From the UHGV virus genome UHGV-1366603: DNA of 64,000 nucleotides; one strand, given 5' to 3'. Under the pieces are notes generated by a model. It worked only from the letters and a program-made list of their open reading frames with translations, was not told the DNA's origin and did no database searches. A program made the translations under genes and the position numbers. The stretch is from a virus. Shown here in pieces: positions 8,081 to 43,448 of this stretch (its first letter is position 1; every line of letters starts with the position of its first letter).

Positions 8081-8102
8081 AGATATATTTTACTTAGGTG
8101 AG
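8081..8102 (+). promoter_or_regulatory. candidate phage promoter motif AGATATATTTTACTTAGGTGAG, followed by a hairpin at 8104..8130
   Basis: Member of a recurring AT-rich motif family (see findings); sits at the head of the plus-strand block. Confidence 0.3.
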
Positions 8103-8438
8103 TAGGGGCTGAAGTGCGAATTCAGCCCCTATGGGCACGTTTCTTTCGAAACGGAGTTACCATGTGATTAGGAGACAGACCAATGTCTACTGAGAAGAAA
8201 AGCGGATTGGACGAAGTCATCGAATTGTTCAAACGCTACAACCCGGCTATTCCTCGGTAATCATAGTATTACTTAAAATTTACAGATTGTCCCTTTATTC
8301 TGCTACTCGGGATACCGGTAGGGGGTAGGGGGCAATATGTATACGGATATAAATAGCGGAGGTATACGTAGTATACCGACATACTCTTCCCAGAGGAACG
8401 TAGTGACTTCCTTATTCCTTTTTAGGAGAATAAACCTC

Positions 8439-9173
8439 ATGAGAGAATTATTAGACGATATCTTTACCAACACCAGTTTAGAACTTTCTTCTACAGTGGT
8501 TAACGAACTAATAAAACAATCGCAACCTGCTAAGTTAGTCACTGTCAGGGTAGTTAACCCTAAAGATTATCTAGGCTGCGATATCATAAACGGTACGATC
8601 GATGAGTACGCAATTGGTATTTACGCCGACTGGGTCTTCTTTGTTCTTAATACCGAAACCGGTGTCATGTTAACCTACACGATGAGTAGTGATGTCGAAC
8701 ACGAAGTTGTAGCGAAACATATTCGCCACATTGCCAGCACGCCTACCTTTTCCGACGTTACGTTTATTGGGGGAAGCACTATGCTGACGTTATTCTCTTA
8801 CTTCCCACTGTTTAGACATGGGGTAGGGTTAATCAAGCATGTAGAAAACCTTCCCGCTGATGTAGAATTAACGTTGCTCGGTCGGGACATTAGTCTTTAT
8901 CCCTTAAAAGATAACGGTAAGTTATACGGTTTACGTATCTATGTTTCTTGGTTAGAGGGATACCGCGTTATTGAACTGATTGCATCGGATTTAACAAAAC
9001 AAATCCCAGAGGTGGAAACGATTTCTAAAGCCACCCACCTGGTTGAGATTAACCCAGACGATCCGTTTTTACAGTATCACAATGAAATTGCCCTTCGTGG
9101 TATCGCTGCCGTAAAAGGGTGGGGGTGTGCTGAGATTACGAAGGGGTATCTGCTGTTAATTAAAACCGCGTAA
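8439..9173 (+). CDS. hypothetical protein, divergent member of tandem paralog family 1
   Basis: ATG at 8439 preceded by TAGGAGA. C-terminus ..AAVKGWGCAEITKGYLLLIKTA resembles the GW..V...G.QLLF.A tail of the next three genes. Confidence 0.55.
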   Translation: MRELLDDIFTNTSLELSSTVVNELIKQSQPAKLVTVRVVNPKDYLGCDIINGTIDEYAIGIYADWVFFVLNTETGVMLTYTMSSDVEHEVVAKHIRHIASTPTFSDVTFIGGSTMLTLFSYFPLFRHGVGLIKHVENLPADVELTLLGRDISLYPLKDNGKLYGLRIYVSWLEGYRVIELIASDLTKQIPEVETISKATHLVEINPDDPFLQYHNEIALRGIAAVKGWGCAEITKGYLLLIKTA

Positions 9174-9198
9174 GTAAAAACCTAAAGGAGAAAATATC

Positions 9199-9753
9199 AT
9201 GTTTCAAACTGAACTGAAAATTGAAATTATCCAAACCCTTGAAAAAGGCGTAGGCGAACATTTCTTTAGCTGTCCTTATACCGTACTGACCAATACCATT
9301 ATTCAGCCAGGCGCGATGATAGTAGGGGTGAGGGTACAAGCTGTGGAGGAAACCCCGCTGCGTCGCAACATCACTCGTAAAAACCATATCCCATTTAGAA
9401 CGGGTTTTACAGATTACTTTCAGAGCTTACTGAAAGATAGCGTTTGGAAAACGGGCAGCTTCTTCCACGAAGGGAAGACGTCCACGCTGGTTTATAAAGA
9501 AAATACCAAGTATCTGGTTGATTTTCTCTTAGCGCGGCAATACGATTTCTTTCCATCCCCTTCTGGCACCACCCCTGATAATCCAGGTAAGTTATTAAAC
9601 CAAGACGAAGCCGAAGCACTCTTTACAAAACTTCGGAATGAGCAGTGCGATGTTGACGACTGGGAAACATTGATCGCGGTCGCTAAAGCCCACGGTTGGT
9701 ATACTGTACGTAAACTCGGCCAGCAGTTGTTGTTCTTAGCTTATAATGTTTAA
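9199..9753 (+). CDS. hypothetical protein, paralog family 1 (C-terminal GW..V...GxQLLF motif)
   Basis: ORF track; SD AAAGGAG; C-terminus AKAHGWYTVRKLGQQLLFLAYNV. Confidence 0.7.
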   Translation: MFQTELKIEIIQTLEKGVGEHFFSCPYTVLTNTIIQPGAMIVGVRVQAVEETPLRRNITRKNHIPFRTGFTDYFQSLLKDSVWKTGSFFHEGKTSTLVYKENTKYLVDFLLARQYDFFPSPSGTTPDNPGKLLNQDEAEALFTKLRNEQCDVDDWETLIAVAKAHGWYTVRKLGQQLLFLAYNV

Positions 9754-9781
9754 GTAACGAAAACCCTAAAGGAGAGTAAAA

Positions 9782-10933
9782 ATGCGAAATATTATTTCTA
9801 AACCAGGACATGTCAAAATCCTAAAAGAACTGATGGACAGATGCTATAATCAGACTTGGCCTCTGCCAAGCTTAACCATCGAGTCTTCATTACAACGTGA
9901 GTTGTTTGGTTATAACTTGGGCTGCTGTGTACTTACTGAATACAATGAGATTATCGCGCCTGTCGATATCTGTACTTACGATGAAGAAATTGAAGGTTAC
10001 AAGTTCGCGGTTTACACAAATTCTGGACTAAATTACCGTAAACTCGTTGTTAGAGAAAAGAGTAGCAACCGGAAGATTATGTTTAAAGTCTTCCCAAGTG
10101 GTAAAGTCAGTAATTTATGTTTTCAGCTTGAGCAAGTGCCCTTTCACGGTGCGGACATTTTAACTAAACCAGAACTCGCGTTATTAAGCGGGTTAATCGG
10201 CTTTGAAGCAAAAACCATCAAAGTTGAGCAGGAACTTACACAAAACGATTTCGGCTCAAGTTGGTACGAAAGTTTCTTCCGCTACGAAATGTTAAGTGAT
10301 AAAGCTATCAAACTCACTTACCGTTCTACCGACGATCTCGTTTACCACATTTTAATTAGCGGCGAACCCCACCTGATTATTGAAGACAAAGGAGAAAATC
10401 AAATGTCTGCCTTAAAAGACGAATTAGCCCAATTCATTCGTGACGTTGAAGAGAAAAGCAAGAGCGATCATATTTTCTCACAACGCTATCCTGAACTTAT
10501 TGACGAAACCACCGATAGTGTTGTCGATGGTATACGCATTTTCCCAAGTGGTCTTGCAATTTACCGACTGCCTAGCGTTAACCAGCTTAAAGTCATGGAA
10601 ATGCTAAAAGACGTTTTAGCAGAAGCGGGTTGGGAATATCGCTTCGATTGCAATTTCGAAGGGATGGCGTTATTCGTTACAAAGAAAAACTATACCTTGT
10701 CAATCGATCTGCCTAAAAGTCAATACTACAGTTTCTTCCCAAAAGCGTATGACCGCACTGAAAAAGAACCTGCGATGTTACTTGATGCGGCAGAATCCAA
10801 TACGTTAATGATGCATTTGCGGTCAATTGACAAAAAGTTAAATACTAGTCATTTAACGACGATCGGTAAAGATTACGGTTGGAAATCTGTCGAACCGTAC
10901 GGCAGTCAGCTGCTGTTTGTTGCTGACCTTTAA
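9782..10933 (+). CDS. hypothetical protein, paralog family 1
   Basis: ORF track; SD AAAGGAG; C-terminus GKDYGWKSVEPYGSQLLFVADL. Confidence 0.7.
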   Translation: MRNIISKPGHVKILKELMDRCYNQTWPLPSLTIESSLQRELFGYNLGCCVLTEYNEIIAPVDICTYDEEIEGYKFAVYTNSGLNYRKLVVREKSSNRKIMFKVFPSGKVSNLCFQLEQVPFHGADILTKPELALLSGLIGFEAKTIKVEQELTQNDFGSSWYESFFRYEMLSDKAIKLTYRSTDDLVYHILISGEPHLIIEDKGENQMSALKDELAQFIRDVEEKSKSDHIFSQRYPELIDETTDSVVDGIRIFPSGLAIYRLPSVNQLKVMEMLKDVLAEAGWEYRFDCNFEGMALFVTKKNYTLSIDLPKSQYYSFFPKAYDRTEKEPAMLLDAAESNTLMMHLRSIDKKLNTSHLTTIGKDYGWKSVEPYGSQLLFVADL

Positions 10934-11000
10934 TAAGTGAAAATACACTTTCTCTAACTGCCGCGCTTTAGTCGCGGCTTTTGTTAAGAAGGAAATAGAA

Positions 11001-11774
11001 ATGAAAGTCCATTTAGACGATATCTTTAAAACCGAACCGTATATGATCGAAGGTCCGCTAACGTCCCTACTATTCGCCGATAGACTAGATCGTACGTTGC
11101 AATTACAATCGGTCGAATCTGCACCGATTAACGATGTAGAGCGCTACGAGCGTATCAACCATACGCGGGGTGAGTATCGTCGCTATAAGCCAAACTCACT
11201 AACCATCAAACTTTGGAAAGTAAGCACAGGTAAAGTATTAACTTATCGCGCCGTTGGTAGTTATTACATTCAACAGGCCAAAGAGTGGTTAGAAAAAGTT
11301 AAAGAACTGAACTTCGATCTACTGAGCAAAAAACTGCGCGATCATAACGCCAGTTTGCCGATACGTAATTATTTCGCCACGATTGAAAATAGTCGTTGCT
11401 TCGTTTCCAGCAAGTCTATGATCTTACCCGGGGCTGATGTTCAAACAACACTGAAAGATGTGGTTGTGAAGAAAATCTTTCATGAATCTGAACACGTTGG
11501 ATTTCGTATCTATTTAACGCACAAGAGGCCATTTACCGTGATTCATGTTGTTACCGCACCCGAAGGCTCAGCAGTCGTACGTGAACTTCCTGACGCACGT
11601 GACCGCAGCCCTAATGAGCCGCTTTACTTAATGTCAGGAACAAAATCAGAATCTTTGATGTCCCGTTACAGCATGGTTGATGTTGTTGATACTGCTATGA
11701 AGTTAGGTTGGAAAGAAGTACAGCAGCACGGCAAACAATTGCTGTTTATCGCAGATGTAAATCTCAATAACTAA
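11001..11774 (+). CDS. hypothetical protein, paralog family 1
   Basis: ORF track; SD AAGGAAA; C-terminus AMKLGWKEVQQHGKQLLFIADVNLNN. Confidence 0.7.
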   Translation: MKVHLDDIFKTEPYMIEGPLTSLLFADRLDRTLQLQSVESAPINDVERYERINHTRGEYRRYKPNSLTIKLWKVSTGKVLTYRAVGSYYIQQAKEWLEKVKELNFDLLSKKLRDHNASLPIRNYFATIENSRCFVSSKSMILPGADVQTTLKDVVVKKIFHESEHVGFRIYLTHKRPFTVIHVVTAPEGSAVVRELPDARDRSPNEPLYLMSGTKSESLMSRYSMVDVVDTAMKLGWKEVQQHGKQLLFIADVNLNN

Positions 11775-11786
11775 AGAGGTGGTACC

Positions 11787-12365
11787 GTGTACCGATTAAT
11801 AGAAATGAGAAAAGACGTTTGGTTGGAAAACCTCGTCGATGGGGAGCTTGAGGGAATAGAGCTTTCCTTACCAGAGAGAGCGGACACGGTATTGGCCTTT
11901 CTGGTAAAACAGGCAGACCGTGAACCGGTAGGAATCTTCACTGTGGACTATAAAGATCCACGAGGAATTCATTTACGGAACATTTGCAGTGGTTTGGAAA
12001 ACTTACCGGCTAATCCGTTCTTAAACTACGCAAAACGTAAACTCCAAACGGGACAACACCTCTGGGTAACGTTATCGCCTGACGTTAGGATCATACGTGA
12101 CGATTACTCGGCGTTTGTACAGGCAACGAAAGTCAGTCTGTATAACCCGAACGCAGAGCGTACCGATATGCCGTTTATAATTACCTTAGAAGACGATGGA
12201 ACGCAAGAAGGTATTGAGGCAATTACGGAATTAGTAAATTCTTATCCGGTTGCCACTATTGAGTTAGAAAACCCAAACCGATTACCGTTGGGTGACCTGC
12301 TCGAATGGATCGAACTGAATACAGAATTCTTAATCAATTCTCGTCAGTATCGATTCGACGTTTAA
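11787..12365 (+). CDS. hypothetical protein (192 aa)
   Basis: GTG start with AAAGAGGTGG just upstream; no motif recognised. Confidence 0.55.
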   Translation: MYRLIEMRKDVWLENLVDGELEGIELSLPERADTVLAFLVKQADREPVGIFTVDYKDPRGIHLRNICSGLENLPANPFLNYAKRKLQTGQHLWVTLSPDVRIIRDDYSAFVQATKVSLYNPNAERTDMPFIITLEDDGTQEGIEAITELVNSYPVATIELENPNRLPLGDLLEWIELNTEFLINSRQYRFDV

Positions 12366-12369
12366 CAAC

Positions 12370-12400
12370 GGTGGGGTGTAAGCCCCACCTTTTATTTTTT
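12370..12400 (+). terminator. rho-independent terminator (GGTGGGG-loop-CCCCACC + T-run)
   Basis: 7-bp GC stem followed by TTTTATTTTTT directly after the stop of 11787..12365. Confidence 0.6.
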
Positions 12401-12425
12401 GTTCGCTAACATTAAAAATAATCTC

Positions 12426-12447
12426 AGATATATATTACTCAGGTGAG
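12426..12447 (+). promoter_or_regulatory. candidate phage promoter motif AGATATATATTACTCAGGTGAG, followed by a hairpin
   Basis: Contains TATATTAC; lies between the terminator and the first secreted-protein gene; followed by hairpin AGAGTTAA-GAT-TTAACTCT. Confidence 0.35.
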
Positions 12448-12494
12448 AGTTAAGATTAACTCTTTTACTTGTTAACCCCACGAGGAGCAAAACA

Positions 12495-12956: not shown

Positions 12957-12978
12957 GTAATAATCTTTTTTAGAGTGC

Positions 12979-13371: not shown

Positions 13372-13389
13372 TTTAATGGAGAATTTACA

Positions 13390-13872: not shown

Positions 13873-13887
13873 TTTAAGGAGTCTGTC

Positions 13888-14298: not shown

Positions 14299-14308
14299 GG
14301 AGTAAACC

Positions 14309-14698: not shown

Positions 14699-14709
14699 TG
14701 TGTAGTCTT

Positions 14710-14746
14710 GACCCCGGTTCGTGCCGATTCGTCCGGGGTCCTTTTT
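14710..14746 (+). terminator. rho-independent terminator (GACCCCGG ... CCGGGGTC + CTTTTT)
   Basis: 8-bp GC stem with a large loop and a short T-run after the secreted-protein cluster. Confidence 0.45.
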
Positions 14747-14777
14747 ACGACCTGTTTTACCTAAAGGAGAATTAAAA

Positions 14778-15254: not shown

Positions 15255-15262
15255 TTAGCCCG

Positions 15263-15290
15263 GCCCCGCTGTGTACGGGGCTTCTTTTTT
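15263..15290 (+). terminator. rho-independent terminator (GCCCCG-loop-CGGGGC + TTCTTTTTT)
   Basis: Seen directly in the sequence after the stop at 15254. Confidence 0.55.
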
Positions 15291-15308
15291 GCCCAAGGAA
15301 ACTGAAAC

Positions 15309-15917
15309 ATGAACGAAATTACTTTGGTTCGTTTTATTGAAGCGATGCATCTAAACGAAGCTAATCCGCACTCTCCGTTATTCATCGATTTAATGGAGGA
15401 AGAAGTCGAAGGGTTCTTAGCGTACCCGCGTTTGAAAGACTACTTCGAACGTAAAACACCAACCGCTTACGAAAAGCTGATGTACGCGTTAGATAACCGT
15501 ACTACGCTAAACAATACGCCGTTTAAAGCGCTGGAAGCAATAGACCCTACCGGGGGTGCAGGTATCCCACAACGTGTTGTGTTCTACTACATCGACAACG
15601 GACGTATTAAAGCCGACGTTGTAAACTGGATCTCCGAAGGGGAAATCCCAGAAACGCGTACTTTTAACCTCTGTCCGGTAGAAGAAGGTTGGGTTGCAGG
15701 AACGCATTATTCCTATCCGTATCAAAGCATCAAATCACCTTATCTGTATCCGGTGTATTTAGATGACGTTACGCCAGGGAAATGTATTCCCGTTACCAAT
15801 CTGATTTGTTTACTGACGATGGAAGTTGTTGCGTCGGACGCAGGCCAGGCTTGGGTTGAGCAATCGAAGAATATCCAAAACTGGCAGGAGATGGGTTACA
15901 AACTCTATCAGCCGTAA
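15309..15917 (+). CDS. hypothetical protein (202 aa)
   Basis: ORF track; SD AAGGAAA; no motif recognised. Confidence 0.6.
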   Translation: MNEITLVRFIEAMHLNEANPHSPLFIDLMEEEVEGFLAYPRLKDYFERKTPTAYEKLMYALDNRTTLNNTPFKALEAIDPTGGAGIPQRVVFYYIDNGRIKADVVNWISEGEIPETRTFNLCPVEEGWVAGTHYSYPYQSIKSPYLYPVYLDDVTPGKCIPVTNLICLLTMEVVASDAGQAWVEQSKNIQNWQEMGYKLYQP

Positions 15918-15923
15918 TACCAC

Positions 15924-15970: not shown

Positions 15971-16002
15971 TTACACCACGCTCCGTGAATATGGAGGTGG
16001 AC

Positions 16003-19454: not shown

Positions 19455-19520
19455 AACAATAAAGGCTCTCTTGACGTTCCTCACTATGAGTGTGAGATTT
19501 TTACGTCAGGAGAGCTACTT

Positions 19521-20170: not shown

Positions 20171-20695
20171 ATGCTTACCTCACTCGGTAAGACCGTTATG
20201 CTAACGATACTTCCAGAATCGGTTATTGACAACGACCTGTTTAACGCCCCTGAGCGCTTCAAGGTCGTTACGATAAATTGCGTAGGGGCAATGGGTCGGG
20301 GTATCGCTTTAGCGTGCAGAGAACGCTATCCTGGGCTTTATCAGGACTACCGGGAACGTTGCTTCGCTAACGAAATACGAATAGGGAATGTGTACGTTTA
20401 TCCCGAGGAAAACTGCATTCTCTTACCAACCAAAACACATTGGAAACTAAAATCCCAGGTTTCTTATGTTATCGCGGGTATCACCGCGTTGGCAGATGCC
20501 GCAGAAAACTTAGAGGGTGGGGTGGCTTTACCGCCGTTAGGGATGGCTAACGGTTGGTTGACAAAAGCTGAACGTCAACAAATCTTTTTGTTTATCGAAA
20601 AGAAACTCGTACCGAGGAGACAACATTACCGTTTCTATTTACCCGATACGCTTTATCAAGAAGCAAAACCTTTAATTCCAAACCTTTTTAAATAG
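20171..20695 (+). CDS. macrodomain protein, TARG1/DarG-like (putative ADP-ribose hydrolase)
   Basis: ..VVTINCVGAMGRGIALACRERYPGLY.. resembles TARG1 ..[24 protein letters not shown]..; downstream ..ILLPTKTHWK.. and ..VALPPLGMANGWL.. parallel TARG1 ..LITKKRASHK.. and ..LSMPRIGCGLDRL.. Start may be ATG 20171 or 20201. Confidence 0.5.
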   Translation: MLTSLGKTVMLTILPESVIDNDLFNAPERFKVVTINCVGAMGRGIALACRERYPGLYQDYRERCFANEIRIGNVYVYPEENCILLPTKTHWKLKSQVSYVIAGITALADAAENLEGGVALPPLGMANGWLTKAERQQIFLFIEKKLVPRRQHYRFYLPDTLYQEAKPLIPNLFK

Positions 20696-20795
20696 ATATT
20701 ATCATTAGGGCACACAACAAAGGAGTTCCAGCTGTCCGCGCCGTGATTTCGTTCTACGGAACACGGAAATGTATAAATCCAACTGGAGAACTAGT

Positions 20796-21482
20796 ATGTT
20801 TCGTATTTTCTTTCTTTTACTGGTAACACTTTTCGCGTTTAACGCATACGCATCCAAATCCGCACCCAGTGCCAAACACCATCGTGAATTCGAAATGATT
20901 CAAGACCGTTTCGAACGTGTAAAACCGTTGATTGTGGAAATCTCCCGAAAGCAGGGCGTCGATCCTAAGTTGATGACCACGCTAATCTATCGGGAATCGC
21001 GGTTTAATCCGAAGGCGTATAATCGAACGTCTAAAGCGCACAGTCTGGTTCAGATGCTACCGAGCACAAAGCGTAATTTGCTAAAACTCTACGGTGCCGA
21101 AATCGGACTTAGTCGTAACGCGGATTTGTATAATCCTCGTAATGCGGTGCTATTGGCTTCCGTCTACGTTAAACATTTAGAAAAGGGGTTGACTAAACGA
21201 CTCAAACGCAAGCCCACTATTGCAGAAATTGCATTGGCTTATCACTGGGGTGAAAGTGGTGCACACGCCAGGATTAAAAGCAAGTCTCGGGCAGCACAAC
21301 GAGAAATGGCGAGCTTTATGAAAGATGCAACGTTCTACAGTGCGAAAATCGACAAGCCTGTAGCATCTCGTCAGCTTGCGTTTGCGAAGAAACCAGAACG
21401 CCAGATTCAGTTAGCGGAAGTTAACCGAATTTGGGATACGATAAACACCAGTTTTCCATTTAAACAAGGAGTCACCCTTTGA
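20796..21482 (+). CDS. secreted soluble lytic transglycosylase (SLT domain), endolysin candidate
   Basis: Signal-peptide-like N-terminus MFRIFFLLLVTLFAFNAYA; SLT motifs ..LIYRESRFNPKA.. (catalytic Glu-Ser) and ..AHSLVQMLPST..; ATG at 20796 has GGAGAA upstream (ORF-track start at 20769). Confidence 0.65.
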   Translation: MFRIFFLLLVTLFAFNAYASKSAPSAKHHREFEMIQDRFERVKPLIVEISRKQGVDPKLMTTLIYRESRFNPKAYNRTSKAHSLVQMLPSTKRNLLKLYGAEIGLSRNADLYNPRNAVLLASVYVKHLEKGLTKRLKRKPTIAEIALAYHWGESGAHARIKSKSRAAQREMASFMKDATFYSAKIDKPVASRQLAFAKKPERQIQLAEVNRIWDTINTSFPFKQGVTL

Positions 21483-21988: not shown

Positions 21989-21994
21989 TACTTG

Positions 21995-22030
21995 CCCCTA
22001 ATCCGATTGGATTAGGGGTACTTTTATTTA
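21995..22030 (+). terminator. rho-independent terminator (CCCCTAATCC-GATT-GGATTAGGGG + T-run)
   Basis: 10-bp perfect stem followed by TACTTTTATTTATT. Confidence 0.6.
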
Positions 22031-22051
22031 TTCCCCTAAAGGAGCAAAGGT

Positions 22052-23523: not shown

Positions 23524-23557
23524 CCCCTACTCCTCCGGGAGTAGGGTTATTCTTTTT
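23524..23557 (+). terminator. rho-independent terminator (CCCTACTCC-TCCG-GGAGTAGGG + T-run)
   Basis: Member of the CCCTAC-type hairpin family. Confidence 0.6.
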
Positions 23558-23576: not shown

Positions 23577-24125
23577 ATGTTTCCATCGTCTGAATATTTA
23601 ACCCACCTGGCTTACGGTATTCGTCGTGGTTCTGTTTTCCGTACACGTTTAAAGGATATAAATTTCCTGGCTAATTTCTTATTTGATCGTTTGGGAGATG
23701 GCAATAGCGTTTACAAAAAGATCACCACAACACAACTTTATTCCCTTATAGCAGCATCGGAAATTGTACCTACAGATATTTGGCGATTCAAACGGTATTG
23801 CGAGGGAATTACGATCAGTTTTCTTGATCATTCTCCGATTACCGTTGAAATCGTCGATCGCGTTGATATTAATAGTGAAGTATCAGGTTGGAAGATTCTG
23901 TTCGATTGTGGCAATCGTTATGCGGTACTTGGTTCCTCTGATGAGCGTGACTTCCCATTCGACAAACCCTACTACTACCTCAACGAGGATGAATTCCCGG
24001 ATAAAGAATCCAATATCTTTTTAAACGGGAATACCGTTTACTTCATTTTTCGTACCTGGAACGATGTTGCTGCTATGATTGCTCAAGGCGTCATCGATTA
24101 CCGTAAACTAGAAGTCGACATTTAA
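23577..24125 (+). CDS. hypothetical protein, paralog pair 2 member
   Basis: N-terminus MFPSSEYLTHLAYGIRR and ..LNGNTVYFIFRTW...EV. Confidence 0.6.
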   Translation: MFPSSEYLTHLAYGIRRGSVFRTRLKDINFLANFLFDRLGDGNSVYKKITTTQLYSLIAASEIVPTDIWRFKRYCEGITISFLDHSPITVEIVDRVDINSEVSGWKILFDCGNRYAVLGSSDERDFPFDKPYYYLNEDEFPDKESNIFLNGNTVYFIFRTWNDVAAMIAQGVIDYRKLEVDI

Positions 24126-24136
24126 AATAAAAGCTA

Positions 24137-24172
24137 CCCTACTCCCGAAAAGGAGTAGGGTAATTTCTTTTA
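24137..24172. terminator. bidirectional terminator between convergent genes (CCCTACTCC-CGAAAA-GGAGTAGGG, T/A runs on both sides)
   Basis: Same stem sequence as the hairpin at 23524; flanked by A-rich 5' and T-rich 3' sequence. Confidence 0.6.
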
Positions 24173-24796: not shown

Positions 24797-26170
24797 TTAC
24801 TCCTCGTCGATTTCAGTGTACCATTTCGCTTTACGAGACAGTATGCGATATTCGACGTTATCGTATTCGAACACCCAGAAGTAGTTATCGGGATCAGCTT
24901 CATCAACGAGTTTCACGACATCCAGACTGGTCTGGTACGGATGGTATTCTTCCGCTGCGATTAACGCCTGGAAGAACAACGCTAACCACTCGGTGGTGGA
25001 TTTCGACATTCGTGCAATGTCTGGGTTTGTTGTTGCAATCAGTGCATAGTCTGGTAACGTTTCGTGTAAGGTATTCTTACGGGTGTCATTCTCAGGACCA
25101 CTGATAACCACCATGTTCAGTGATTTATACACAGTAGGTAAATCGGTAACATCCGTCGTCGGTTTGCTTACCGTTTTACTATTTCTTTCTGCAACAGACT
25201 GATCAGACCATTCCCCAAACTTTGTAATGGCTTTGACCCAGAAATCATATGGAAGGATGGGGGAATAGAGAGCCGCCACGTCTTCCTCATTCGGTATACC
25301 ACGGATTTTCCACCCCGGAACCATTGTGAATTTCGTGGTGGTAAAGATCTCAGGGAATACCTTCACTCCAATCGGAACCGTAAAGCTGGAGTTTGCAAGA
25401 ATATGTTCACGCAACGCTTGCTTTATTTTCGTTGGGTTTTTTCCTGCGCGTCCGTAAATGATAACCGACATTGGAACAACCAGTGTTGACTCGTAGTTTT
25501 CTTGGTCATGCCAGGTGTAGTAGTTAGTCTGGATGGCAGTATACGGGAACCCTGCCATTAACTCGTTGATTTTCTTATGGTGTTCGGTAAGGTTAAACCC
25601 TTCCATCGCTTTTTCAACGACTGACTTCGTGGCCAAAAACGTGTCGATTGGCTCAATCGGCATTTGCACTTCGATTTCATAACCCGTGTAGTCCTGGTCG
25701 AAGTCTTCATCCGAGAACCAAACTATGATTTGGTTATCTACATCAGTGTCATCTTGTACTTGATCTGCTGTTGCTTCATATTTCCAGCTCACCCAACGTG
25801 GGAACCAGTTACTGTTCGTCTGGATCATCGCACCGGATTGAACACCGGAAATGGTTGATTGGAATTGGCCTAATAATAGGCGCTGGAATTCAAGTTCGTC
25901 ATTTCTCAGATTCCCCAAGATGGCTTGCTGGTAAATCCATTGAGAAACGGTTAGAATATGATCAGAAAACTCGGCTGGAACAACAACCGTCTGTTTTTCT
26001 CGTTTAGACGTAAATGTCACCAACTGCACTTGCAGATTGGATTTAGTAAACGTCTGTTTACTCTTCGCGTACGAGAGGGTCAGATCAGACAGCTCACCTA
26101 CCGGAGCGGTGACGCCGTCCTGATTGTCAAACAGAGCCGGTATCTGAATAAAACCTTGTAAGTCTAACAT
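24797..26170 (-). CDS. hypothetical protein (~457 aa; start uncertain, 26170 or 26230)
   Basis: ORF track gives 24797..26230; an internal ATG at 26170 avoids overlap with the divergent gene at 26196. Confidence 0.5.
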   Translation of the reverse strand: MLDLQGFIQIPALFDNQDGVTAPVGELSDLTLSYAKSKQTFTKSNLQVQLVTFTSKREKQTVVVPAEFSDHILTVSQWIYQQAILGNLRNDELEFQRLLLGQFQSTISGVQSGAMIQTNSNWFPRWVSWKYEATADQVQDDTDVDNQIIVWFSDEDFDQDYTGYEIEVQMPIEPIDTFLATKSVVEKAMEGFNLTEHHKKINELMAGFPYTAIQTNYYTWHDQENYESTLVVPMSVIIYGRAGKNPTKIKQALREHILANSSFTVPIGVKVFPEIFTTTKFTMVPGWKIRGIPNEEDVAALYSPILPYDFWVKAITKFGEWSDQSVAERNSKTVSKPTTDVTDLPTVYKSLNMVVISGPENDTRKNTLHETLPDYALIATTNPDIARMSKSTTEWLALFFQALIAAEEYHPYQTSLDVVKLVDEADPDNYFWVFEYDNVEYRILSRKAKWYTEIDEE

Positions 26171-29494: not shown

Positions 29495-30162
29495 TGCTGA
29501 TTGTTTTTAGTCATGCGTTATCGATGGCACCGAGTTATATTCAGATACGCTTTTCAGCAATTGCGCGTCAGCAGTGGGGCTTTAAAGCCCCCTATTCTGA
29601 CGACCACTATACTCTTGGTGAAGTAGCACTTGAACTTGCCTTACGCTCATTGTGGGAAATCATCGCATTGTATAATGCAGGTTGTGATATACCGAAAGAT
29701 TGTTTCCCGCAACGGTTGATTGCGCAAGGTACTACGAACACTTACGGTAATCCGGCATTGGTAGAAGAGTGCTTAGGCTACGCTAACCAGTCTGGGGAAC
29801 TGCAACACAACTTTAATCTGGTGATTAACAAAGTCTGGAGTGAGCTGGAAAGCTATCCTGAAAAGATTATCTGGTTTGATCGTAACCAATTCGTTAAGGA
29901 GGTGGCCAGTAAACGACCTGTTCGTTTAGTTACCTTAAAACCCGCCGACCTTGATTTGAAACAAACGTATCCCTTCCCGGAAGAAATTCGGCTTTCTCCA
30001 GAAACTGTAGGTCACACTATTTTCAAACAAGGTGACGCCTGGATATTGCCTCACGATCTAGACCGTTTCCTGCTCAACTCCGATCAGATTCACTCCGGCT
30101 ATGATTCTCTCGTGAAAGCGTTTCACATCGATCCCTATTTCGCTAAAAACTTTCTTAGATAG
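29494..30162 (+). CDS. hypothetical protein
   Basis: ATG overlapping the upstream stop (TGATG); ORF track 29491..30162. Confidence 0.55.
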   Translation: MLIVFSHALSMAPSYIQIRFSAIARQQWGFKAPYSDDHYTLGEVALELALRSLWEIIALYNAGCDIPKDCFPQRLIAQGTTNTYGNPALVEECLGYANQSGELQHNFNLVINKVWSELESYPEKIIWFDRNQFVKEVASKRPVRLVTLKPADLDLKQTYPFPEEIRLSPETVGHTIFKQGDAWILPHDLDRFLLNSDQIHSGYDSLVKAFHIDPYFAKNFLR

Positions 30163-30176
30163 ATATTATTCAGGTG
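30158..30176 (+). promoter_or_regulatory. candidate phage promoter motif AGATAGATATTATTCAGGTG
   Basis: Matches the recurring AGATAT-ATT-AC/TC-AGGTG motif, upstream of gene 30200. Confidence 0.3.
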
Positions 30177-30199
30177 TAGAACCCTCGGAGTTAATCACC

Positions 30200-31993: not shown

Positions 31994-31998
31994 TATAC

Positions 31999-32030
31999 AC
32001 CCTAGCCTCGGCTAGGGTTACTTTATTTTA
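31999..32030 (+). terminator. rho-independent terminator (CCCTAGCC-loop-GGCTAGGG + T-run)
   Basis: Hairpin followed by TTACTTTATTTT. Confidence 0.5.
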
Positions 32031-33879: not shown

Positions 33880-33896
33880 CGTGAAAATAAAGATTA

Positions 33897-33942
33897 CCCC
33901 TAGACCTTGTGGTCTAGGGGTAGCTTTTACTTATTATTTTTT
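33897..33942. terminator. bidirectional terminator (CCCCTAGACC-TTGT-GGTCTAGGGG, T-runs both sides)
   Basis: 10-bp stem between convergent genes 32996..33879 and 33934..34689. Confidence 0.6.
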
Positions 33943-35086: not shown

Positions 35087-35101
35087 TTATTGGAGCGCTA
35101 A

Positions 35102-36598: not shown

Positions 36599-36643
36599 AA
36601 GCGTTAGGGTAGGGGATTACCCTACCCTAGCTAAGGAGTCGTT

Positions 36644-36943
36644 ATGCGTTATCAAACGGAGATTGTGGAACGCTTAAGCGAAGGTTTAGCCAGCGTCAGT
36701 CTGGAAACAGCAGCGGCATTTCGTGAGACTTTCGCTACTTTCTTTCCCGATCGTGAATCTTTTTGTTTAAAGGTCGGTGAATATTATTCCAAGTTACTCG
36801 AACACTACGGTTATCCGCCGGTGAAATTCGACGTACCTGAAAACACCGACGACATCAGTTATTGGATTGAAACCCTCGAAGCAGGGACACTTTCCAACTT
36901 GCGTAAGGCGGTAGAAAATGAAACTCGATCCAGCGCGGCGTAA
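36644..36943 (+). CDS. hypothetical protein (99 aa)
   Basis: SD TAAGGAG; preceded by hairpin GGGTAGGG-GATTA-CCCTACCC with no T-run. Confidence 0.5.
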   Translation: MRYQTEIVERLSEGLASVSLETAAAFRETFATFFPDRESFCLKVGEYYSKLLEHYGYPPVKFDVPENTDDISYWIETLEAGTLSNLRKAVENETRSSAA

Positions 36944-37586
36944 AAAAGCGGAAGCTTACGCCTTACAAATCTTAAGCCTGGTTGACCCCTCTGGGATTAA
37001 CGCGGAAGCAGCAAAGAAAGCCTTTGCTCGAATGACGGACGAACAGTTTAATCGTCTTCGTGAAGGGCTACCGATTTACAACCCGGTCGGTAGTAAAGTT
37101 AAAATCGACCACATGCGAAACGTTAAGCTTTGTCGTGTTTTAGGTTTGAACCTGGAACAACGGTTGTGGTTAACTGAGCCGAAAACGGGTGTTTTCCATC
37201 GTACTCGCTATCCCCATCTGGTGCTACGTTTACCTGCGCGTCGTCAAACACAGATGCAAGAAAAGAAAATGGCGGTAGCGAAGAACGACAAAGTTCGTGA
37301 TAAACTCTCCGGTCAGGTTGTGGGTCCTTCTAAGGCATCTGGCGTCTCTTTCCCAGAAGCGTACATCATGTACTCGGATGGTCACGACTGGACACTGAAA
37401 GAGTTTCTGTGGGCGCGTGGGGGTAACGAAGCGTTACAACGTGCGTTCTATCAATCGTTACGTCAAACCGGTAAGGGACGTATTGACCTACCGGGGGCAG
37501 AACGTACCAGTTCGAAAGCAACACGTACCTGGTCTGCGTATCTGAAAGCGATGCACATTGGTAACAACATAGGCCATCCGTCATGA
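36918..37586 (+). CDS. hypothetical protein (222 aa)
   Basis: ORF track; overlaps the upstream gene by 26 nt. Confidence 0.5.
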   Translation: MKLDPARRKKAEAYALQILSLVDPSGINAEAAKKAFARMTDEQFNRLREGLPIYNPVGSKVKIDHMRNVKLCRVLGLNLEQRLWLTEPKTGVFHRTRYPHLVLRLPARRQTQMQEKKMAVAKNDKVRDKLSGQVVGPSKASGVSFPEAYIMYSDGHDWTLKEFLWARGGNEALQRAFYQSLRQTGKGRIDLPGAERTSSKATRTWSAYLKAMHIGNNIGHPS

Positions 37587-38305
37587 GATTTTCTCGACGT
37601 TTTTTGATTGATATCGATGCGTTGTTTGACACCCGAATCGGTTGGGTCAAAGCCATCAAACCTGAAAGATTGGAAATTATGGATTACGACGTTTATCGTC
37701 GTCGTTTTACGGAGGAATGGGCGACTGTCTTGGGGTTTGAGAATTGGGAAGAGGAGTATCAGAAACGCGATAAACGCGCGTTGATGAATGCGGAACCCAC
37801 CGAACTGTTGTTGACGATGAAGAACGAGTTCGAATGTATGTTACTCGAAATCGAGATGCATTCGCCTATCGAAAAACCGACGCTGACGATCAACACCTGG
37901 CCGTATACTGATCTTACTGACCAAGAAATGCAAACGTTCTTGCAGATGTTCCGTATCTATTACGATATGGTGCAGGTTGAGTTAGTGTCGTGGCCGCATT
38001 CGGAGCTCACACCAGGTCGTTTAGCGACGGCTTGGGATTGTTGGATAATGTACGATTGGTTCGCTTGGATTGAACTCAATGCGAAACATCTGAAAAAACC
38101 TATCCCTAGCTTTACCATTACGCACCCTGCCCTGCTAACACCGGAGCTTACAAAAGAGACGGTAGAGCAGCTTAAACGCGATGGTGTAAATCCGTTCAAG
38201 GAACACATCCGGTTTATGGCAGAGTGGGTCGGTGTCGACCCACGTGATTCTGCGTTATTTAGTCTTGCTCGTCCGAAGAAGGACGCGCAAACGCCGCAGT
38301 CATAA
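37583..38305 (+). CDS. hypothetical protein (240 aa)
   Basis: ORF track; start overlaps the upstream stop. Confidence 0.55.
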   Translation: MRFSRRFLIDIDALFDTRIGWVKAIKPERLEIMDYDVYRRRFTEEWATVLGFENWEEEYQKRDKRALMNAEPTELLLTMKNEFECMLLEIEMHSPIEKPTLTINTWPYTDLTDQEMQTFLQMFRIYYDMVQVELVSWPHSELTPGRLATAWDCWIMYDWFAWIELNAKHLKKPIPSFTITHPALLTPELTKETVEQLKRDGVNPFKEHIRFMAEWVGVDPRDSALFSLARPKKDAQTPQS

Positions 38306-38723
38306 TGGACTTCACGTCAATTTGTTCGCCAACCGGAGCCAACTCCCCTTCCGAGATTTCTACGTTAGGAATGTCTGGAAGGGTGGGTTGGTAACTATTA
38401 TTTTCATCAGGTTCTTCGTCGTGACGTTTTATTTTCACGTTACCGCGTTGCATCAGAATTGTATTCAGTGCGTTAGCCAAGTCTTGGTTCGCTTCACTGT
38501 TTTTCTGAGCAGCAGCAACACGACGTTTAGAAATGATTTGCTTATCTAGGTCGTTTAATAACGTCCCGATACGATCCACGGTCTTTAAATCTTTGTGGGC
38601 ATTAGGATCGTCTAAGATTAGATTGACAATTCTGACACGGGCTTGTTGCGTTTGGCGGAGAAGCGATTCTTCGTCGTCTACTTCACCATCTAACGCCTGG
38701 TATTTCACTTCTTCTTCAGCCAT
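38259..38723 (-). CDS. hypothetical acidic protein (154 aa)
   Basis: ORF track; 3' end overlaps convergent gene 37583..38305. Confidence 0.45.
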   Translation of the reverse strand: MAEEEVKYQALDGEVDDEESLLRQTQQARVRIVNLILDDPNAHKDLKTVDRIGTLLNDLDKQIISKRRVAAAQKNSEANQDLANALNTILMQRGNVKIKRHDEEPDENNSYQPTLPDIPNVEISEGELAPVGEQIDVKSIMTAAFARPSSDEQD

Positions 38724-38757
38724 TTAAAACCACCTCATTTTCAAAAAGAAGTCAGAC

Positions 38758-38775
38758 AGATATTATTTACGTGAG
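38758..38775 (+). promoter_or_regulatory. candidate phage promoter motif AGATATTATTTACGTGAG
   Basis: Member of the recurring motif family, ~20 nt upstream of gene 38796. Confidence 0.3.
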
Positions 38776-38795
38776 ACATTCTTTCGGAGTGAATT

Positions 38796-39344: not shown

Positions 39345-39377
39345 TAACCAGTTAACCCCTTGTAACAAGGTGAAGTG

Positions 39378-40190: not shown

Positions 40191-41461
40191 AACTCGATCA
40201 GATAACCAGCCAGATTAACAAAGGTCAATCGGCTATCGACAACTCGGTTAATACCGCGAAGAATGCGGTTAACCGAGTACAGTCTACGGTGGAGAACGCC
40301 GAACGTGGCATTCAGAATACCGTCGATAAAGTCAGTCAGCTTTCCGATCGTGCTGGTGAAACCTTTAACAAACTCATCAGCGGTGGGAGCGAACTGACCT
40401 CAAAAATCGGTAACCTTTTCGGTGGTAGCGACATTGCAAGCGTAGGGGGTACCAAAACAGCGGGTAGCTCCACTTCCGGTGTTTCCCCAGGACAAAAAGT
40501 TCCTGGGTTTGCTTCTAACACTAAAGAGACACTGCCTGTTCTCGATCCGCAGAAGCGTGATGTTTCAGAACCTTTCAAAAAGGTTAATGAGGAAGGACTT
40601 AAAGCACTAGGGTATCTGTCACCGGGTGACTCAGGAAGTTTACTGGGTAAAGGTTGGAACAGTCTTTCGTCGCTTAGTGATTCTCTTCTGTCAGGAATCG
40701 GTACTGACTTCTCCTCCGTGAAGAAACGTCTCGAAGGAACGCTGAATATCGCAGGTCAACTGGCTAAGCTTCCTTCGGAAATCAGTCATGAAGTCAACAA
40801 CTTTATGTCTGAAGTCAACAGTATGCGTTACCAGATAACCTCGGTTATTGATGACGTACAACACACGTTTGACAGCTATAAAGACCTTGACGATTTCTTA
40901 GCCATCGACAACTTGATTAACAGTTTCAAAGGCAGCGACAGTTTTTCAGCGTTAGACATTAACACATCGTCTGCATTGATCTACGGTCTGTCTACGAAAC
41001 TTAACAGTTACGGACTGCCTGCAAAAATCGACCCGATGATTCAGGCTATTACTGACGATCAAGCAAAAGAGGCGCTTTACGGGGAGTTGATGATTCAAGC
41101 TGCTGCGACCGGTAACTTGGACTCAACGGAATATTACCTGGACAAACTTCAGGAAGGTCAGGGCAAACAGATTGCGGAAACCGTGATTCAAAACATCATG
41201 GCTAACTTGCGTGTAGAACCCGGTACGAGTTTTAGTACGTACGGGACACGAATGTTGGCGTTGTTTAAAGCACTGGATGCCAAATGGGATAAAACGAAAA
41301 ACGTTACTCCCGAAACTACCGAATTGAAACTCTATACTTACGCAGGCGCTAACGCGATACAAGCGCTGATGACCACCGAAAAACGTAACTACGTTTTAGC
41401 GGCAGGTAGTGTAAGTTATCAGTCTACCGATGAAATCGTGGAAGACTACTTTGCAATCTAA
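40187..41461 (+). CDS. hypothetical protein with N-terminal coiled-coil and Gly/Ser-rich segment (424 aa)
   Basis: ORF track; start overlaps the upstream stop. Confidence 0.6.
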   Translation: MKLDQITSQINKGQSAIDNSVNTAKNAVNRVQSTVENAERGIQNTVDKVSQLSDRAGETFNKLISGGSELTSKIGNLFGGSDIASVGGTKTAGSSTSGVSPGQKVPGFASNTKETLPVLDPQKRDVSEPFKKVNEEGLKALGYLSPGDSGSLLGKGWNSLSSLSDSLLSGIGTDFSSVKKRLEGTLNIAGQLAKLPSEISHEVNNFMSEVNSMRYQITSVIDDVQHTFDSYKDLDDFLAIDNLINSFKGSDSFSALDINTSSALIYGLSTKLNSYGLPAKIDPMIQAITDDQAKEALYGELMIQAAATGNLDSTEYYLDKLQEGQGKQIAETVIQNIMANLRVEPGTSFSTYGTRMLALFKALDAKWDKTKNVTPETTELKLYTYAGANAIQALMTTEKRNYVLAAGSVSYQSTDEIVEDYFAI

Positions 41462-41471
41462 GAGGCCGGAT

Positions 41472-42293
41472 ATGTCCGAACCACAATTACTGCGCTCCGT
41501 ATTAATGAAAATCAAAAGTCAACGTGAAGACATTCAATCATTGGCTTTAACGCTCGGTTATGCGCCGGGTGACTTACGTTCTAAATCCTACGTGAACGCG
41601 TCAAGCATTGTACTCACGCCTGATGAGCGCCTTGCTTATGTCCTATACCTGAGACGGTTAGGCTATGTTTGTGCTTTACCTGAACAACTCCCGTTTACCG
41701 ATGGGGTGAACCACATCAACTTTTACTCCAACGGTCGTACTACCGTGGGTAAGATGATCAGTAACTTCTACGCGAAACCTGACGGGTCAAAATTCGACAC
41801 GATTCACGGTCAGTTCCTGACGTTGGAAGGTTACTATCACTACTTGCGTATCGTTGACTACATGTTACACATGGGTTATTCGATTAAAACGATGGGGCGT
41901 CTGGAAACTGAATTTCCTGATATTCTTCGTTTACGTACGTTAACGGGTACGGAATGTATTCAGTTAGGTCGTCGATTAAAAGCGGCAATTTACGGGAAAA
42001 CGGATTACCGTCCGGGCGAGTTTAGTAGCTACGCGACTGGCGCATTTAAGAATGCACTGCTGCGTAAGTTACACCTGTTACAATACGACGGGTCTTGTTT
42101 AGGTAATACCCTGTCTTACTGCCATTCAATGAATCTTCCGTTCTTGCATTATTACGTTATGAACGGTCGGGTGATTACACCACCGCATTCTGAATGGCTT
42201 CCTAATCTGGTGATTTCTATTGTAGAAAACATCGACTATAACGACTCGACGTTCGATATTACGGACGTCAGTGAACGTATGGGATTAATCTAA
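41472..42293 (+). CDS. hypothetical protein (~273 aa)
   Basis: ATG at 41472 with AGAGG upstream; ORF-track start at 41430. Confidence 0.55.
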   Translation: MSEPQLLRSVLMKIKSQREDIQSLALTLGYAPGDLRSKSYVNASSIVLTPDERLAYVLYLRRLGYVCALPEQLPFTDGVNHINFYSNGRTTVGKMISNFYAKPDGSKFDTIHGQFLTLEGYYHYLRIVDYMLHMGYSIKTMGRLETEFPDILRLRTLTGTECIQLGRRLKAAIYGKTDYRPGEFSSYATGAFKNALLRKLHLLQYDGSCLGNTLSYCHSMNLPFLHYYVMNGRVITPPHSEWLPNLVISIVENIDYNDSTFDITDVSERMGLI

Positions 42294-42952
42294 TGGGATT
42301 GTTCGATACCCTAGCGCGGCTGGATAAAGCGCAGGAAGAAGAAATCATTCGTGTTGCAGGTGAATCCATTAAACACGAAGTCGAAAAGGAATACTGCGTT
42401 TGGGTAAAACCGACGCAAGCGGGATGGGATTGGCTCCACGCACAAGAAGCCAAGATGTTCATGGACATTCTCATGCCGATAGAAGGTGGGCGTCGTCGTA
42501 TCCGTATTAAAGAAGACGGTACGGCACAGCTAACGCTTAAGCGTAAATTCCAGGACGGAAAGGTTGAAGAGAATTCGGATATCGGGATTAGTTCCGCACT
42601 CTCTTTTTACAAAGATGGCTATTTGGCACACCTGGTGAAGCGTGTTCACTTAGAGCCAGGTGAATTAGCCGATAAAGGTGCTAAGCATTGGGATATTGAT
42701 ATTTTCAGTATCACCACCGGACACCCTGCTATTGAAGTTTCGGCTGACTTTAACGATCTCCTCACCGAGATGCGTAGTAGTACCAGCGTCGGAGACTGGG
42801 TGAAAGTTGAACTGGAAGTCGAGCGTTACGAGATTGCGGATGTGTTGTCCGTGATTCCGTTTGAGTTTGACGGCCATATTCCGGCTACGCCAAAAGATCC
42901 TGAAGACCAAGAATACCTTCGCGATTACTGGGATTCAGTTACCCGTATGTAA
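42293..42952 (+). CDS. hypothetical protein (219 aa)
   Basis: ATG overlapping the upstream stop. Confidence 0.6.
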   Translation: MGLFDTLARLDKAQEEEIIRVAGESIKHEVEKEYCVWVKPTQAGWDWLHAQEAKMFMDILMPIEGGRRRIRIKEDGTAQLTLKRKFQDGKVEENSDIGISSALSFYKDGYLAHLVKRVHLEPGELADKGAKHWDIDIFSITTGHPAIEVSADFNDLLTEMRSSTSVGDWVKVELEVERYEIADVLSVIPFEFDGHIPATPKDPEDQEYLRDYWDSVTRM

Positions 42953-42958
42953 CACCTA

Positions 42959-42997
42959 CCCTACTCCTGTCTGGGAGTAGGGTATTTTCATTTTTTA
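42959..42997 (+). terminator. rho-independent terminator (CCCTACTCC-loop-GGAGTAGGG + T-run)
   Basis: Third copy of the identical CCCTACTCC/GGAGTAGGG stem, followed by TATTTTCATTTTTT. Confidence 0.6.
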
Positions 42998-43016
42998 CCC
43001 TAAAGGAGAATTTACC

Positions 43017-43385
43017 ATGCAAGCTCAGTTTTTTAATACTCCCAACGGATTCGGTTTTAGATTCCCTGAATTTGTTTTACCAAAACAAGTTATTGAAGTA
43101 CCACTCACACGTGGTGTGCTATTAAAGCTACGCACCGTACTGGCCAACTTCTCAGGAAAGACTGTGGATATTCGTGTATGGTCAGGTTCGGGAAGTCCTG
43201 GTGGTGTTTTGTTTGTCGATTACAATTGGATTAAAAGGACAGGTTTTCCGCTTGTACGAAAAGTTGAAGCTGTACACGGATTATCCTTCCACACTCTGCT
43301 GGGTGATTTAACGTTCCCTGAAAGTGGCGAATATTCTACTCCTGCTGAAGACGAATACCAAATTCATCTCGTTTTGTTGAAGTAA
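43017..43385 (+). CDS. hypothetical protein (122 aa)
   Basis: SD AAAGGAG. Confidence 0.55.
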   Translation: MQAQFFNTPNGFGFRFPEFVLPKQVIEVPLTRGVLLKLRTVLANFSGKTVDIRVWSGSGSPGGVLFVDYNWIKRTGFPLVRKVEAVHGLSFHTLLGDLTFPESGEYSTPAEDEYQIHLVLLK

Positions 43386-43448
43386 TTTTTACAATTAGGT
43401 GTAGATTTATGTCTCCCCTAGAACAAAATCTAAATCGGAGAAACAATT

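Follow-up and report, generated by a model that had tools for sequence, protein, structure and literature searches.

What is the function of an AT-rich motif that recurs, on the plus strand, ahead of blocks of genes in the genome of a virus? This question was asked of UHGV virus genome UHGV-1366603, of which a 64 kb stretch, called the window below, was analysed. A preliminary description, made from the letters alone, had listed seven copies of the motif and had likened its core to the early-promoter element of phiKZ-type phages. We report here that five of the seven sites form a family, and that these five are very probably early promoters of a phiKZ-like jumbo phage of the SPN3US/phiEaH2 clade, read by its virion RNA polymerase (RNAP), as far as sequence comparison can tell.

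Results

Five sites on one strand form a family

The motif strings were present at all seven places, of which five proved to be members of one family and two did not. The members are all on the plus strand, at 8081-8102, 12426-12447, 20694-20710, 30158-30176 and 38758-38775 (P1 to P5 below); a better register for the last two is 30157-30179 and 38754-38776. When aligned without gaps on ATATTA, these sites share far more than the gapped consensus suggests (TCTCAGATATATATTACTCAGGTGAG for site 12426, AATCAGATATATTTTACTTAGGTGAG for 8081, TCTTAGATAGATATTATTCAGGTGTAG for 30158, AGTCAGACAGATATTATTTACGTGAG for 38758 and TTTAAATAGATATTATCATTAGGGCAC for 20694, all read on the plus strand).

To avoid circularity, position weight matrices (PWMs) were trained on other genomes only, those of Salmonella phage SPN3US and Erwinia phage phiEaH2. 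With a 29-nt PWM made from 19 SPN3US sites, the five window sites scored 18.5 to 31.5 bits and the next best match on either strand 4.7 bits; the maximum score in 200 Markov-1 random sequences was 5.9 bits on average, and 16.0 at the highest. With a 40-nt PWM made from 24 SPN3US and phiEaH2 sites, the same five sites, all on the plus strand, scored 24.0 to 44.7 bits and the next best match 3.8, for a null maximum of -0.4 +/- 4.3 bits (highest 13.6, 100 random sequences). The gap from the fifth site to the next best score was at least 14 bits under either PWM, and a chance origin of the motif is excluded by these statistics. The simple pattern A[GT]ATATTA[CT] occurred four times on the plus strand of the window and never on the minus strand. 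In an unbiased 12-mer seed search of intergenic DNA, AAATAGATATTA was outranked only by the ribosome-binding site, read on either strand. Simple counting of enriched intergenic k-mers did not bring out the motif, and was dominated by terminator T-runs and by the ribosome-binding site CCTAAAGGAG; a 12-mer neighbourhood search over the whole window, intergenic and coding, was uninformative.

All five sites are oriented toward a downstream plus-strand gene. Their predicted transcription starts fall within the non-coding 6.7% of the window, a figure taken from a hand-curated gene map (open reading frames (ORFs) with picked start codons) and not from an annotation, and lie 23 to 83 nt ahead of a start codon. 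This agrees with the preliminary description, which had the motif in plus orientation, intergenic and 20-90 nt before gene starts; in the window, the motif search with strand and position statistics returned five plus-strand sites and none on the minus strand.

As to the two discarded sites, 43384-43404 scored below zero, carries a 2-nt insertion relative to the family and is without an SPN3US counterpart, and 19488-19505 belongs to a hairpin like that of a terminator, of which it forms the 3′ arm and T-run (CTCACTATGAGTGTGAG-ATTTTTAC). The string TTTTTAC, common to both, was considered as a second promoter family and rejected: both strands of the coding DNA are rich in TTTTAC, and between genes several copies proved to be the tail of a terminator.

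The element is in register with phiKZ early promoters

A logo was drawn from 29 sites, of which SPN3US contributed 19, and the window and phiEaH2 5 each. Conservation spans about -34 to +3, counted from a conserved G (+1); the element is longer than had been described in the preliminary description and reaches upstream to about -34. Its layout is aTT..AAA, a T-rich stretch, CAGATA(G/T)ATATTA(C/T), six bases and G(+1). The conserved positions are A-34, T-33 and T-32, A-29 (97%) and A-28 (88%), then T-23, T-21 and C-20, followed by the core with AGATA at -19 to -15, G/T at -14, ATATTA at -13 to -8 and C/T at -7, then Y and T, and at the downstream end by G at +1 and A at +2. Along AGATA(G/T)ATATTA(C/T), from -19 to -7, each position is conserved at 84-97%, except for -14 and -7, which define two classes (see below) and reach 64% each. 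The G stands seven bases past ATATTAY in 97% of the 29 sites, and in 7 of 7 phiKZ sites. By analogy with phages in which starts were mapped, this G is the predicted transcription start nucleotide, and the starts for P1 to P5 would be 8100, 12445, 20709, 30176 and 38773, which are 83, 50, 60, 24 and 23 nt from the next start codon, respectively.

In every jumbo phage that encodes RNAPs, the early operons are preceded by a conserved AT-rich motif, about 10 nt long and centred near -10, and wherever transcripts were profiled this motif is the early promoter read by the virion RNAP (PMC7598289). The AR9 early consensus is AAATATATATTAT-(6N)-G+1, and in phiKZ and phiR1-37 the start was mapped 6 nt past the consensus (PMC5312081). 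We searched the first 50 kb of phiKZ for TATATTAC, the phiKZ element to which the core had been likened in the preliminary description. It was found seven times on the plus strand and never on the minus strand, each copy being intergenic with respect to the annotation and followed by N6-G. One copy lies upstream of PHIKZ054, to which an early promoter has been assigned by differential RNA sequencing (PMC8244752). Once aligned on the predicted start, the phiKZ and window sites are in register from -34 to +1, and the resemblance noted earlier is thereby borne out. Because of this in-register match to the phiKZ sites and to the AR9 consensus, on every sequence criterion, we assign the five sites to the early-promoter family. 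Their placement is also that of the family, intergenic and co-oriented upstream of genes for 5 of 5 in the window, with a few dozen sites per genome in kin (28-32 early promoters in phiKZ). This type of promoter is already established for phiKZ, AR9 and phiR1-37, and is reported to be detectable bioinformatically in all related phages.

We propose the following scheme. A multisubunit RNAP packaged in the virion would be injected along with the DNA, and would recognise an element of about 37 bp in three parts: an upstream aTT(c)nAAA at -34 to -27, a T-rich part around -23 to -21, and an extended -10-like part, CAGATA(G/T)ATATTA(C/T), at -20 to -7. RNA synthesis would begin at the near-invariant G, seven bases past the third part, and short blocks of mostly uncharacterised plus-strand genes would be transcribed up to the next intrinsic terminator. 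To our knowledge, no sigma-like factor of the virion RNAP is known.

The AGGTGAG half of the motif straddles the predicted start. A Shine-Dalgarno role for it was considered and rejected, as the start codon is 23-83 nt away and a separate GGAG-type site stands closer to the ATG in every gene. Since only GAG of AGGTGAG would be present in the predicted RNA, a ribosome-binding role is excluded, in line with the preliminary description.

Might the same sites be host sigma-70 promoters, with TATTAT/TATTAC as the -10 element and the AT-rich upstream DNA as an UP element? The class B hexamer matches TATAAT at 5 of 6 positions, its spacing to the conserved G suits a sigma-70 start, and site 38758 is a weak 9/12 sigma-70 match. 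The 29-site logo contains neither a TTGACA-like -35 hexamer nor a TG extension, however, and its strongest conservation, at -20 to -13 and -29/-28, is at positions that sigma-70 does not read. A sigma-70 scan picked only 1 of the 5 sites. Over positions 6000-45999 of the window, sigma-70 sites were rarer than in dinucleotide shuffles (21 vs 32.3 +/- 4.9, and 18 vs 30.2 +/- 4.4), a depletion consistent with a genome that does not rely on the host RNAP. Finally, the homologous early promoters of phiKZ and AR9 are transcribed without host RNAP (PMC7598289). We consider it very unlikely that the five sites are sigma-70 promoters.

The window encodes homologues of virion RNAP subunits

The source phage is, from its sequence, an uncultivated relative of SPN3US and phiEaH2, both phiKZ-like jumbo phages. 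Its largest ORFs matched PHROG families of jumbo-phage virion proteins and of split "RNA polymerase beta" subunits, and its genes follow the same order as those at 160-213 kb in SPN3US and at 82-137 kb in phiEaH2. Relatedness showed by protein search and by distant blastn, the latter in patches only; megablast of 12 kb against the phage collection gave no match. The nearest public sequence is a metagenomic contig, IMGVR_UViG_3300045988_095954, close and not identical; IMGVR_UViG_3300045988_078609, of roughly 225 kb, is also among the nearest. Rfam and tRNA scans of the window found nothing.

Jumbo phages of the SPN3US/phiEaH2 type have split RNAPs, one of which is packaged in the virion (PMC5105663 for the SPN3US subunits). 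Three subunit homologues of such a split, multisubunit virion RNAP are encoded in the window, all on the plus strand. The beta′-N gene (57712-59337, homologue of SPN3US gp240) matched phrog_2986 at 1.6e-235; its 541-aa product is 86.6% identical to that of SPN3US and 85-86% identical to those of the Erwinia phages Asesino and phiEaH2. The beta-N gene (59341-63507, homologue of gp241) matched phrog_3148 along its entire length; its syntenic counterpart in SPN3US is at 213989-218194. The beta-C gene (36918-37586, homologue of gp218) shares 85% identity over 221 aa with ACQ60_gp048 of SPN3US, originally numbered gp218 (the RefSeq locus tag of SPN3US being 266 minus the original gp number). By mass spectrometry, gp240, gp241 and gp218 are three of the five virion RNAP subunits packaged in SPN3US heads (PMC5105663).

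The five sites are conserved in SPN3US and phiEaH2

Positional counterparts of all five sites were found in both relatives. Those of P1 to P5 in phiEaH2 are at L006:4331, 7446, 18725, 27605 and 36300, on the plus strand, with scores of 16-36 bits; in SPN3US they are at 161938, 165691, 174958, 184048 and 191606, the first of which surfaced only with the extended PWM. Three-way alignments of spacers were made for four sites (12426, 20694, 30158 and 38758), and in these the motif is a conserved block while the remainder has diverged; at 20694 the downstream leader is conserved too.

In SPN3US, A[GT]ATATTA[CT] occurs 19 times on the plus strand and once on the minus strand, and 17 of the 19 exact-pattern sites are intergenic, upstream of plus-strand genes. 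Above 12 bits, 23 sites were counted on the plus strand and one on the minus strand, the lone minus match being the reverse reading of a near-palindromic plus site. The count of 23 is partly circular, as 19 of these were PWM training sites; the independent ones are 100834, 109912, 161938 and 238200, which are weaker.

One SPN3US copy lies 41 nt upstream of gp34/gp35, the genes for beta′ of the non-virion RNAP, and another lies upstream of gp22/gp23. This bears on a second explanation, namely that the sites are promoters of the non-virion RNAP, of middle rather than early class. The timing that we propose rests on analogy, and some phiKZ genes have both early and middle promoters, which leaves some room for this view. 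Genes of the non-virion RNAP must nevertheless be expressed before that enzyme exists, so that an early promoter is logical at this position. The known promoters of non-virion RNAPs also differ from the motif, which is in register with the early consensus: phiKZ late promoters have TATG at the start, phiKZ middle promoters a weak AT-rich/TAC signal near -22 to -24 (PMC7598289), and the AR9 late promoter is AACA-(6N)-TA/G. We regard this second explanation as improbable.

Two further features of SPN3US were noted. Predicted early promoters occur there in tandem, at 15633/15726 (93 nt apart) and 72505/72703 (198 nt apart), one of the pairs being just 3′ of the major head protein gene. In addition, (A)ATCGAC(T/C)AT recurs as a second element in many SPN3US early leaders, where it follows the 5′ hairpin and precedes the ribosome-binding site (leaders 56313-56363, 65432-65485, 94258-94310, 114005-114059, 223296-223349 and 23829-23886). 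The exact 10-mer AATCGACTAT is absent from the window, where the looser ATCGAC(C/T)AT occurs only twice, in coding regions.

Two classes of sites, one with a predicted 5′-terminal stem-loop

By their sequence, the sites belong to two discrete classes, told apart at positions -14 and -7. These are T and C in class A, in which YTAGGT precedes the start (…ATATATTAC-YTAGGT-GAG), and G and T in class B, which is usually without stem-loop. The base at one of these positions goes with the base at the other (9 of 10 vs 1 of 19, Fisher p = 1e-5, with counts tallied by eye from the aligned sites). Class is also kept at aligned orthologous positions in the three genomes, site 12426 being A/A/A and the three class B sites B/B/B.

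Stable hairpins had been noted after two copies of the motif, and both were found again; they are two because both of these sites are class A. The P1 transcript would carry a 5′ stem-loop at 8102-8132, with a 12-bp stem (8102-8113/8121-8132), a 7-nt loop and no T-run after it. Its 45-nt leader (8100-8144) folds at -20.8 kcal/mol (z = -3.6), and in the orthologous IMG/VR locus L091 the stem is maintained via one compensatory change (GGGGC/GCCCC to GGGAC/GTCCC). The P2 transcript would begin with a stem-loop at 12445-12464, whose 8-bp stem (12445-12452/12457-12464) starts from +1; the SPN3US and phiEaH2 orthologues have a hairpin at the same position, and the stem sequence differs in phiEaH2. 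Over the three genomes, a stem-loop beginning between +1 and +6 was present in 10 of 10 class A sites. From +1 to +30, class A sites had a median minimum free energy of -7.4 kcal/mol, as against -3.1 in class B (Mann-Whitney p = 2e-4).

The class A pattern was also seen in IMG/VR, in many contigs of 205-246 kb of this clade among the matches listed. Among the same matches, 30 of 38 distinct class A sites of related jumbo contigs had an initial hairpin of at least 6 bp, and a 20-locus subset contained 15 different stem sequences. In more than a dozen related genomes, the sequence of the class A stem-loop varies while its structure is kept.

We considered whether these hairpins could be intrinsic terminators, and rejected it: the one at 8102-8132 is followed by TGGGCACG, which is no T-run, and the stem at 12445-12464 contains no more than 2 G-C pairs. 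Both hairpins are absent from the output of the terminator scan. By analogy, the class A stem-loop probably protects the 5′ end of the transcript from decay that depends on a free 5′ end. Stem-loops at the 5′ terminus stabilise bacterial mRNAs, the ompA leader being an example. The class A hairpin is alike in that, starting at +1 to +6, it leaves few or no unpaired 5′ bases; it is unlike in that it is coupled to one promoter subclass, and in that its stabilising role is deduced here. We found no description in the literature of such a coupling of hairpin and promoter subclass in jumbo-phage early promoters. That the two classes are functionally distinct early sub-programmes, with promoter and hairpin forming a cassette, is a tentative idea which we would hold to be rather doubtful. 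If true, the cassette could set the stability of the first transcripts after injection; alternatively, it could act on the handling of these transcripts, for instance on how the virion RNAP escapes from the promoter or how the RNA leaves the early infection vesicle.

The shape of the class B core, AGATA-T-TATCT, raises a third explanation, in which the motif would not start transcription but serve as an operator, bound by a dimeric DNA-binding regulator encoded by the phage. This core is an imperfect inverted repeat, and two sites scored 15.6 and 16.4 bits on their reverse strand. Class A (AGATATATATTAC) is not palindromic, however, and the class B sites of the window itself are only weakly so. 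Conservation is asymmetric, with CAG upstream, G+1 downstream and the upstream AAA block, and 23 of 24 SPN3US matches are on the gene-sense strand. An operator is to our minds the least credible of the explanations weighed here, and we keep to early promoters.

Individual predicted promoters and their probable transcription units

A strong intrinsic terminator was found 1.3-4.3 kb 3′ of each site. The terminator scan placed one at 12370-12399 (plus strand), probably ending the P1 unit, and analogous ones for the other units at 15262-15290, 21993-22030, 31999-32028 and 42957-42994. Five short transcription units can be proposed on this basis, in which each promoter would be paired with one of these terminators.

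P1 (8064-8103, that is -36 to +4, plus strand) is a class A variant with core CAGATATATTTTAC at 8080-8093 and predicted start G 8100, and scores 26.4 bits with the 40-nt PWM and 24.9 with the 29-nt PWM. It stands in a divergent spacer, adjoining the minus-strand baseplate gene 7085-8050, and its counterparts in phiEaH2, SPN3US and L091 were identified by position. The first start codon after the predicted start belongs to a 25-codon ORF, 8183-8260 (MSTEKKSGLDEVIELFKRYNPAIPR), preceded by a good AGGAG site and contained in the 237-nt P1 leader; the first long gene starts at 8337. The whole leader, 8100-8336, folds strongly (-80.7 kcal/mol). A G-rich direct repeat, GGTAGGGGGTAGGGGG, is found at 8317-8332, directly upstream of ATG 8337, and similar G-runs (GGGGGTAAGGGGG, GGGGGACCGGGGG) occur in the matching spacer by the baseplate gene of SPN3US and phiEaH2. 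In the first predicted early unit, 8337-12365, most proteins are without PHROG match. The products of 9782-10933 and 11001-11774 have a C-terminal domain in common with each other and with SPN3US gp091 and phiEaH2 gp097, which suggests a fast-evolving paralogous family at this locus.

P2 (12409-12448, plus strand), of class A, has its core CAGATATATATTAC at 12425-12438 and its predicted start at G 12445, 50 nt from ATG 12495, and scores 44.7 bits. It lies just 3′ of terminator 12370-12399, and compared with SPN3US 165691 and phiEaH2 L006:7446 it is a conserved block with diverged flanks.

The other three promoters are of class B. P3 (20673-20712, plus strand; core AAATAGATATTAT at 20690-20702, predicted start G 20709, 28.3 bits) overlaps the stop codon of the upstream gene and is 60 nt ahead of a transglycosylase-like gene, 20769-21482. 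Its leader, 20709-20768, is unusually conserved in the three phages (GTCCGCGCCGT...ACGGAAA.GTATAAATCC; SPN3US L001:24979-25057, phiEaH2 L006:18748-18835). It contains a hairpin at 20741-20766 (CCGT...ACGG), whose inner stem covaries (TTTCGT/ACGGAA, TTCCC/GGGAA, TTCT/AGAA) and which may have a regulatory role in the leader. SPN3US has a short ORF here that is not conserved. P4 (30140-30179, plus strand) has its core TAGATAGATATTAT at 30156-30169 and its predicted start at G 30176, 24 nt from ATG 30200, with a score of 24.0 bits. P5 (38737-38776, plus strand; 39.0 bits) has its core CAGACAGATATTAT at 38753-38766 and its predicted start at G 38773, 23 nt from ATG 38796. It is in a divergent spacer, adjoining the minus-strand gene 38259-38723, and the block CAGACAGATATTAT..GAGACA is invariant with respect to its SPN3US and phiEaH2 orthologues.

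Two observations concern repeated sequences around these units. Terminators 24135-24162, 42957-42984 and 23525-23546, and the related 6631-6655, 33894-33923 and 36605-36629, have a near-identical stem, TACCCTACTCC....GGAGTAGGGTA. These terminators are strong and partly bidirectional, and their sequences suggest a single hairpin family present in several copies rather than independent terminators. The extended ribosome-binding sequence CCTAAAGGAG was found five times (9181-9190, 9765-9774, 14760-14769, 22035-22044 and 42999-43008), always on the plus strand, intergenic and just 5′ of a start codon; when up to 2 mismatches are allowed, it is present in 8 spacers, more than any other intergenic 12-mer.

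Discussion

Several points weigh against our interpretation of the five sites as early promoters. The start, the timing and the identity of the polymerase rest on homology with phiKZ, AR9 and phiR1-37; we found no published transcript data for members of the SPN3US/phiEaH2 clade, and our evidence on this genome comes from 64 kb. The genes downstream are without known function, so that an early nature cannot be read from their content. The hexamer at -12 to -7, TATTAT or TATTAC, matches the sigma-70 -10 consensus at 5 or 4 of 6 positions, and by its sequence may be used to some extent by the host RNAP. The imperfect palindrome in the class B core would also fit a dimeric DNA-binding protein. 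In SPN3US, one high-scoring site (about 25230-25245) is inside a coding region, some 260 nt upstream of the next gene. Lastly, the control for the IMG/VR hairpins was imperfect, as 24 of 68 control sites also passed, among the matches listed; some of these control sites may be fragments of related phages.

If early promoters they are, about 40 kb of this uncultivated jumbo phage can be given a working transcription map, with five predicted early starts and probable terminators, and this map marks which genes of unknown function are likely to be host-takeover genes. It also offers two details for the study of how a virion RNAP finds its promoters. The first is the -34 to +1 architecture, common to phiKZ and to the SPN3US/phiEaH2 clade; the second is the existence of two discrete classes, one of which is tied to a 5′ stem-loop.

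Comparison with known promoters

Compared with a sigma-70 -10 element, the window element has a similar AT-rich hexamer at -12 to -7 (TATTAT vs TATAAT). It differs by the lack of -35 and TG elements, by conservation that extends well beyond the hexamer, and by the fact that the elements of relatives are independent of host RNAP.

Phage N4 has a single-subunit virion RNAP, whose promoter is a DNA hairpin upstream of the start. The likeness lies in an RNA polymerase that is delivered by the virion and reads a small set of early promoters. In the window phage, by contrast, the hairpin is downstream of the predicted start and found in class A only, and the enzyme would be multisubunit.

The match to AR9 is much closer, with 11 of 13 core positions identical in both window classes and the same 6-nt spacer to the G start; the comparison was made with the AR9 core consensus only. 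AR9 differs from the window phage by its uracil-containing DNA, its Gram-positive host and the absence of a phage nucleus.

With phiKZ, the likeness extends over the whole element. Both have a block resembling ATTCAAA (-34 to -28), then T-rich DNA, (T)ATATTAC (-14 to -7), a spacer of 6 nt and a G start. In both phages the sites are strand-specific, intergenic and upstream of plus-strand genes, and the virion RNAP is of the same split kind. The differences are found at -20 to -15, which reads CAGATA in the window phage and AAACAG or AAGAT(A/C/T) in phiKZ, and in the two discrete classes of the window clade, of which class A is tied to a 5′ stem-loop. The cultured relatives of the window phage infect enterobacteria, whereas phiKZ infects Pseudomonas. 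The phiKZ starts were mapped on transcripts, whereas those of the SPN3US/phiEaH2 clade are predicted here from sequence, on which the two phages agree in register from the upstream A-rich block to the G at +1.

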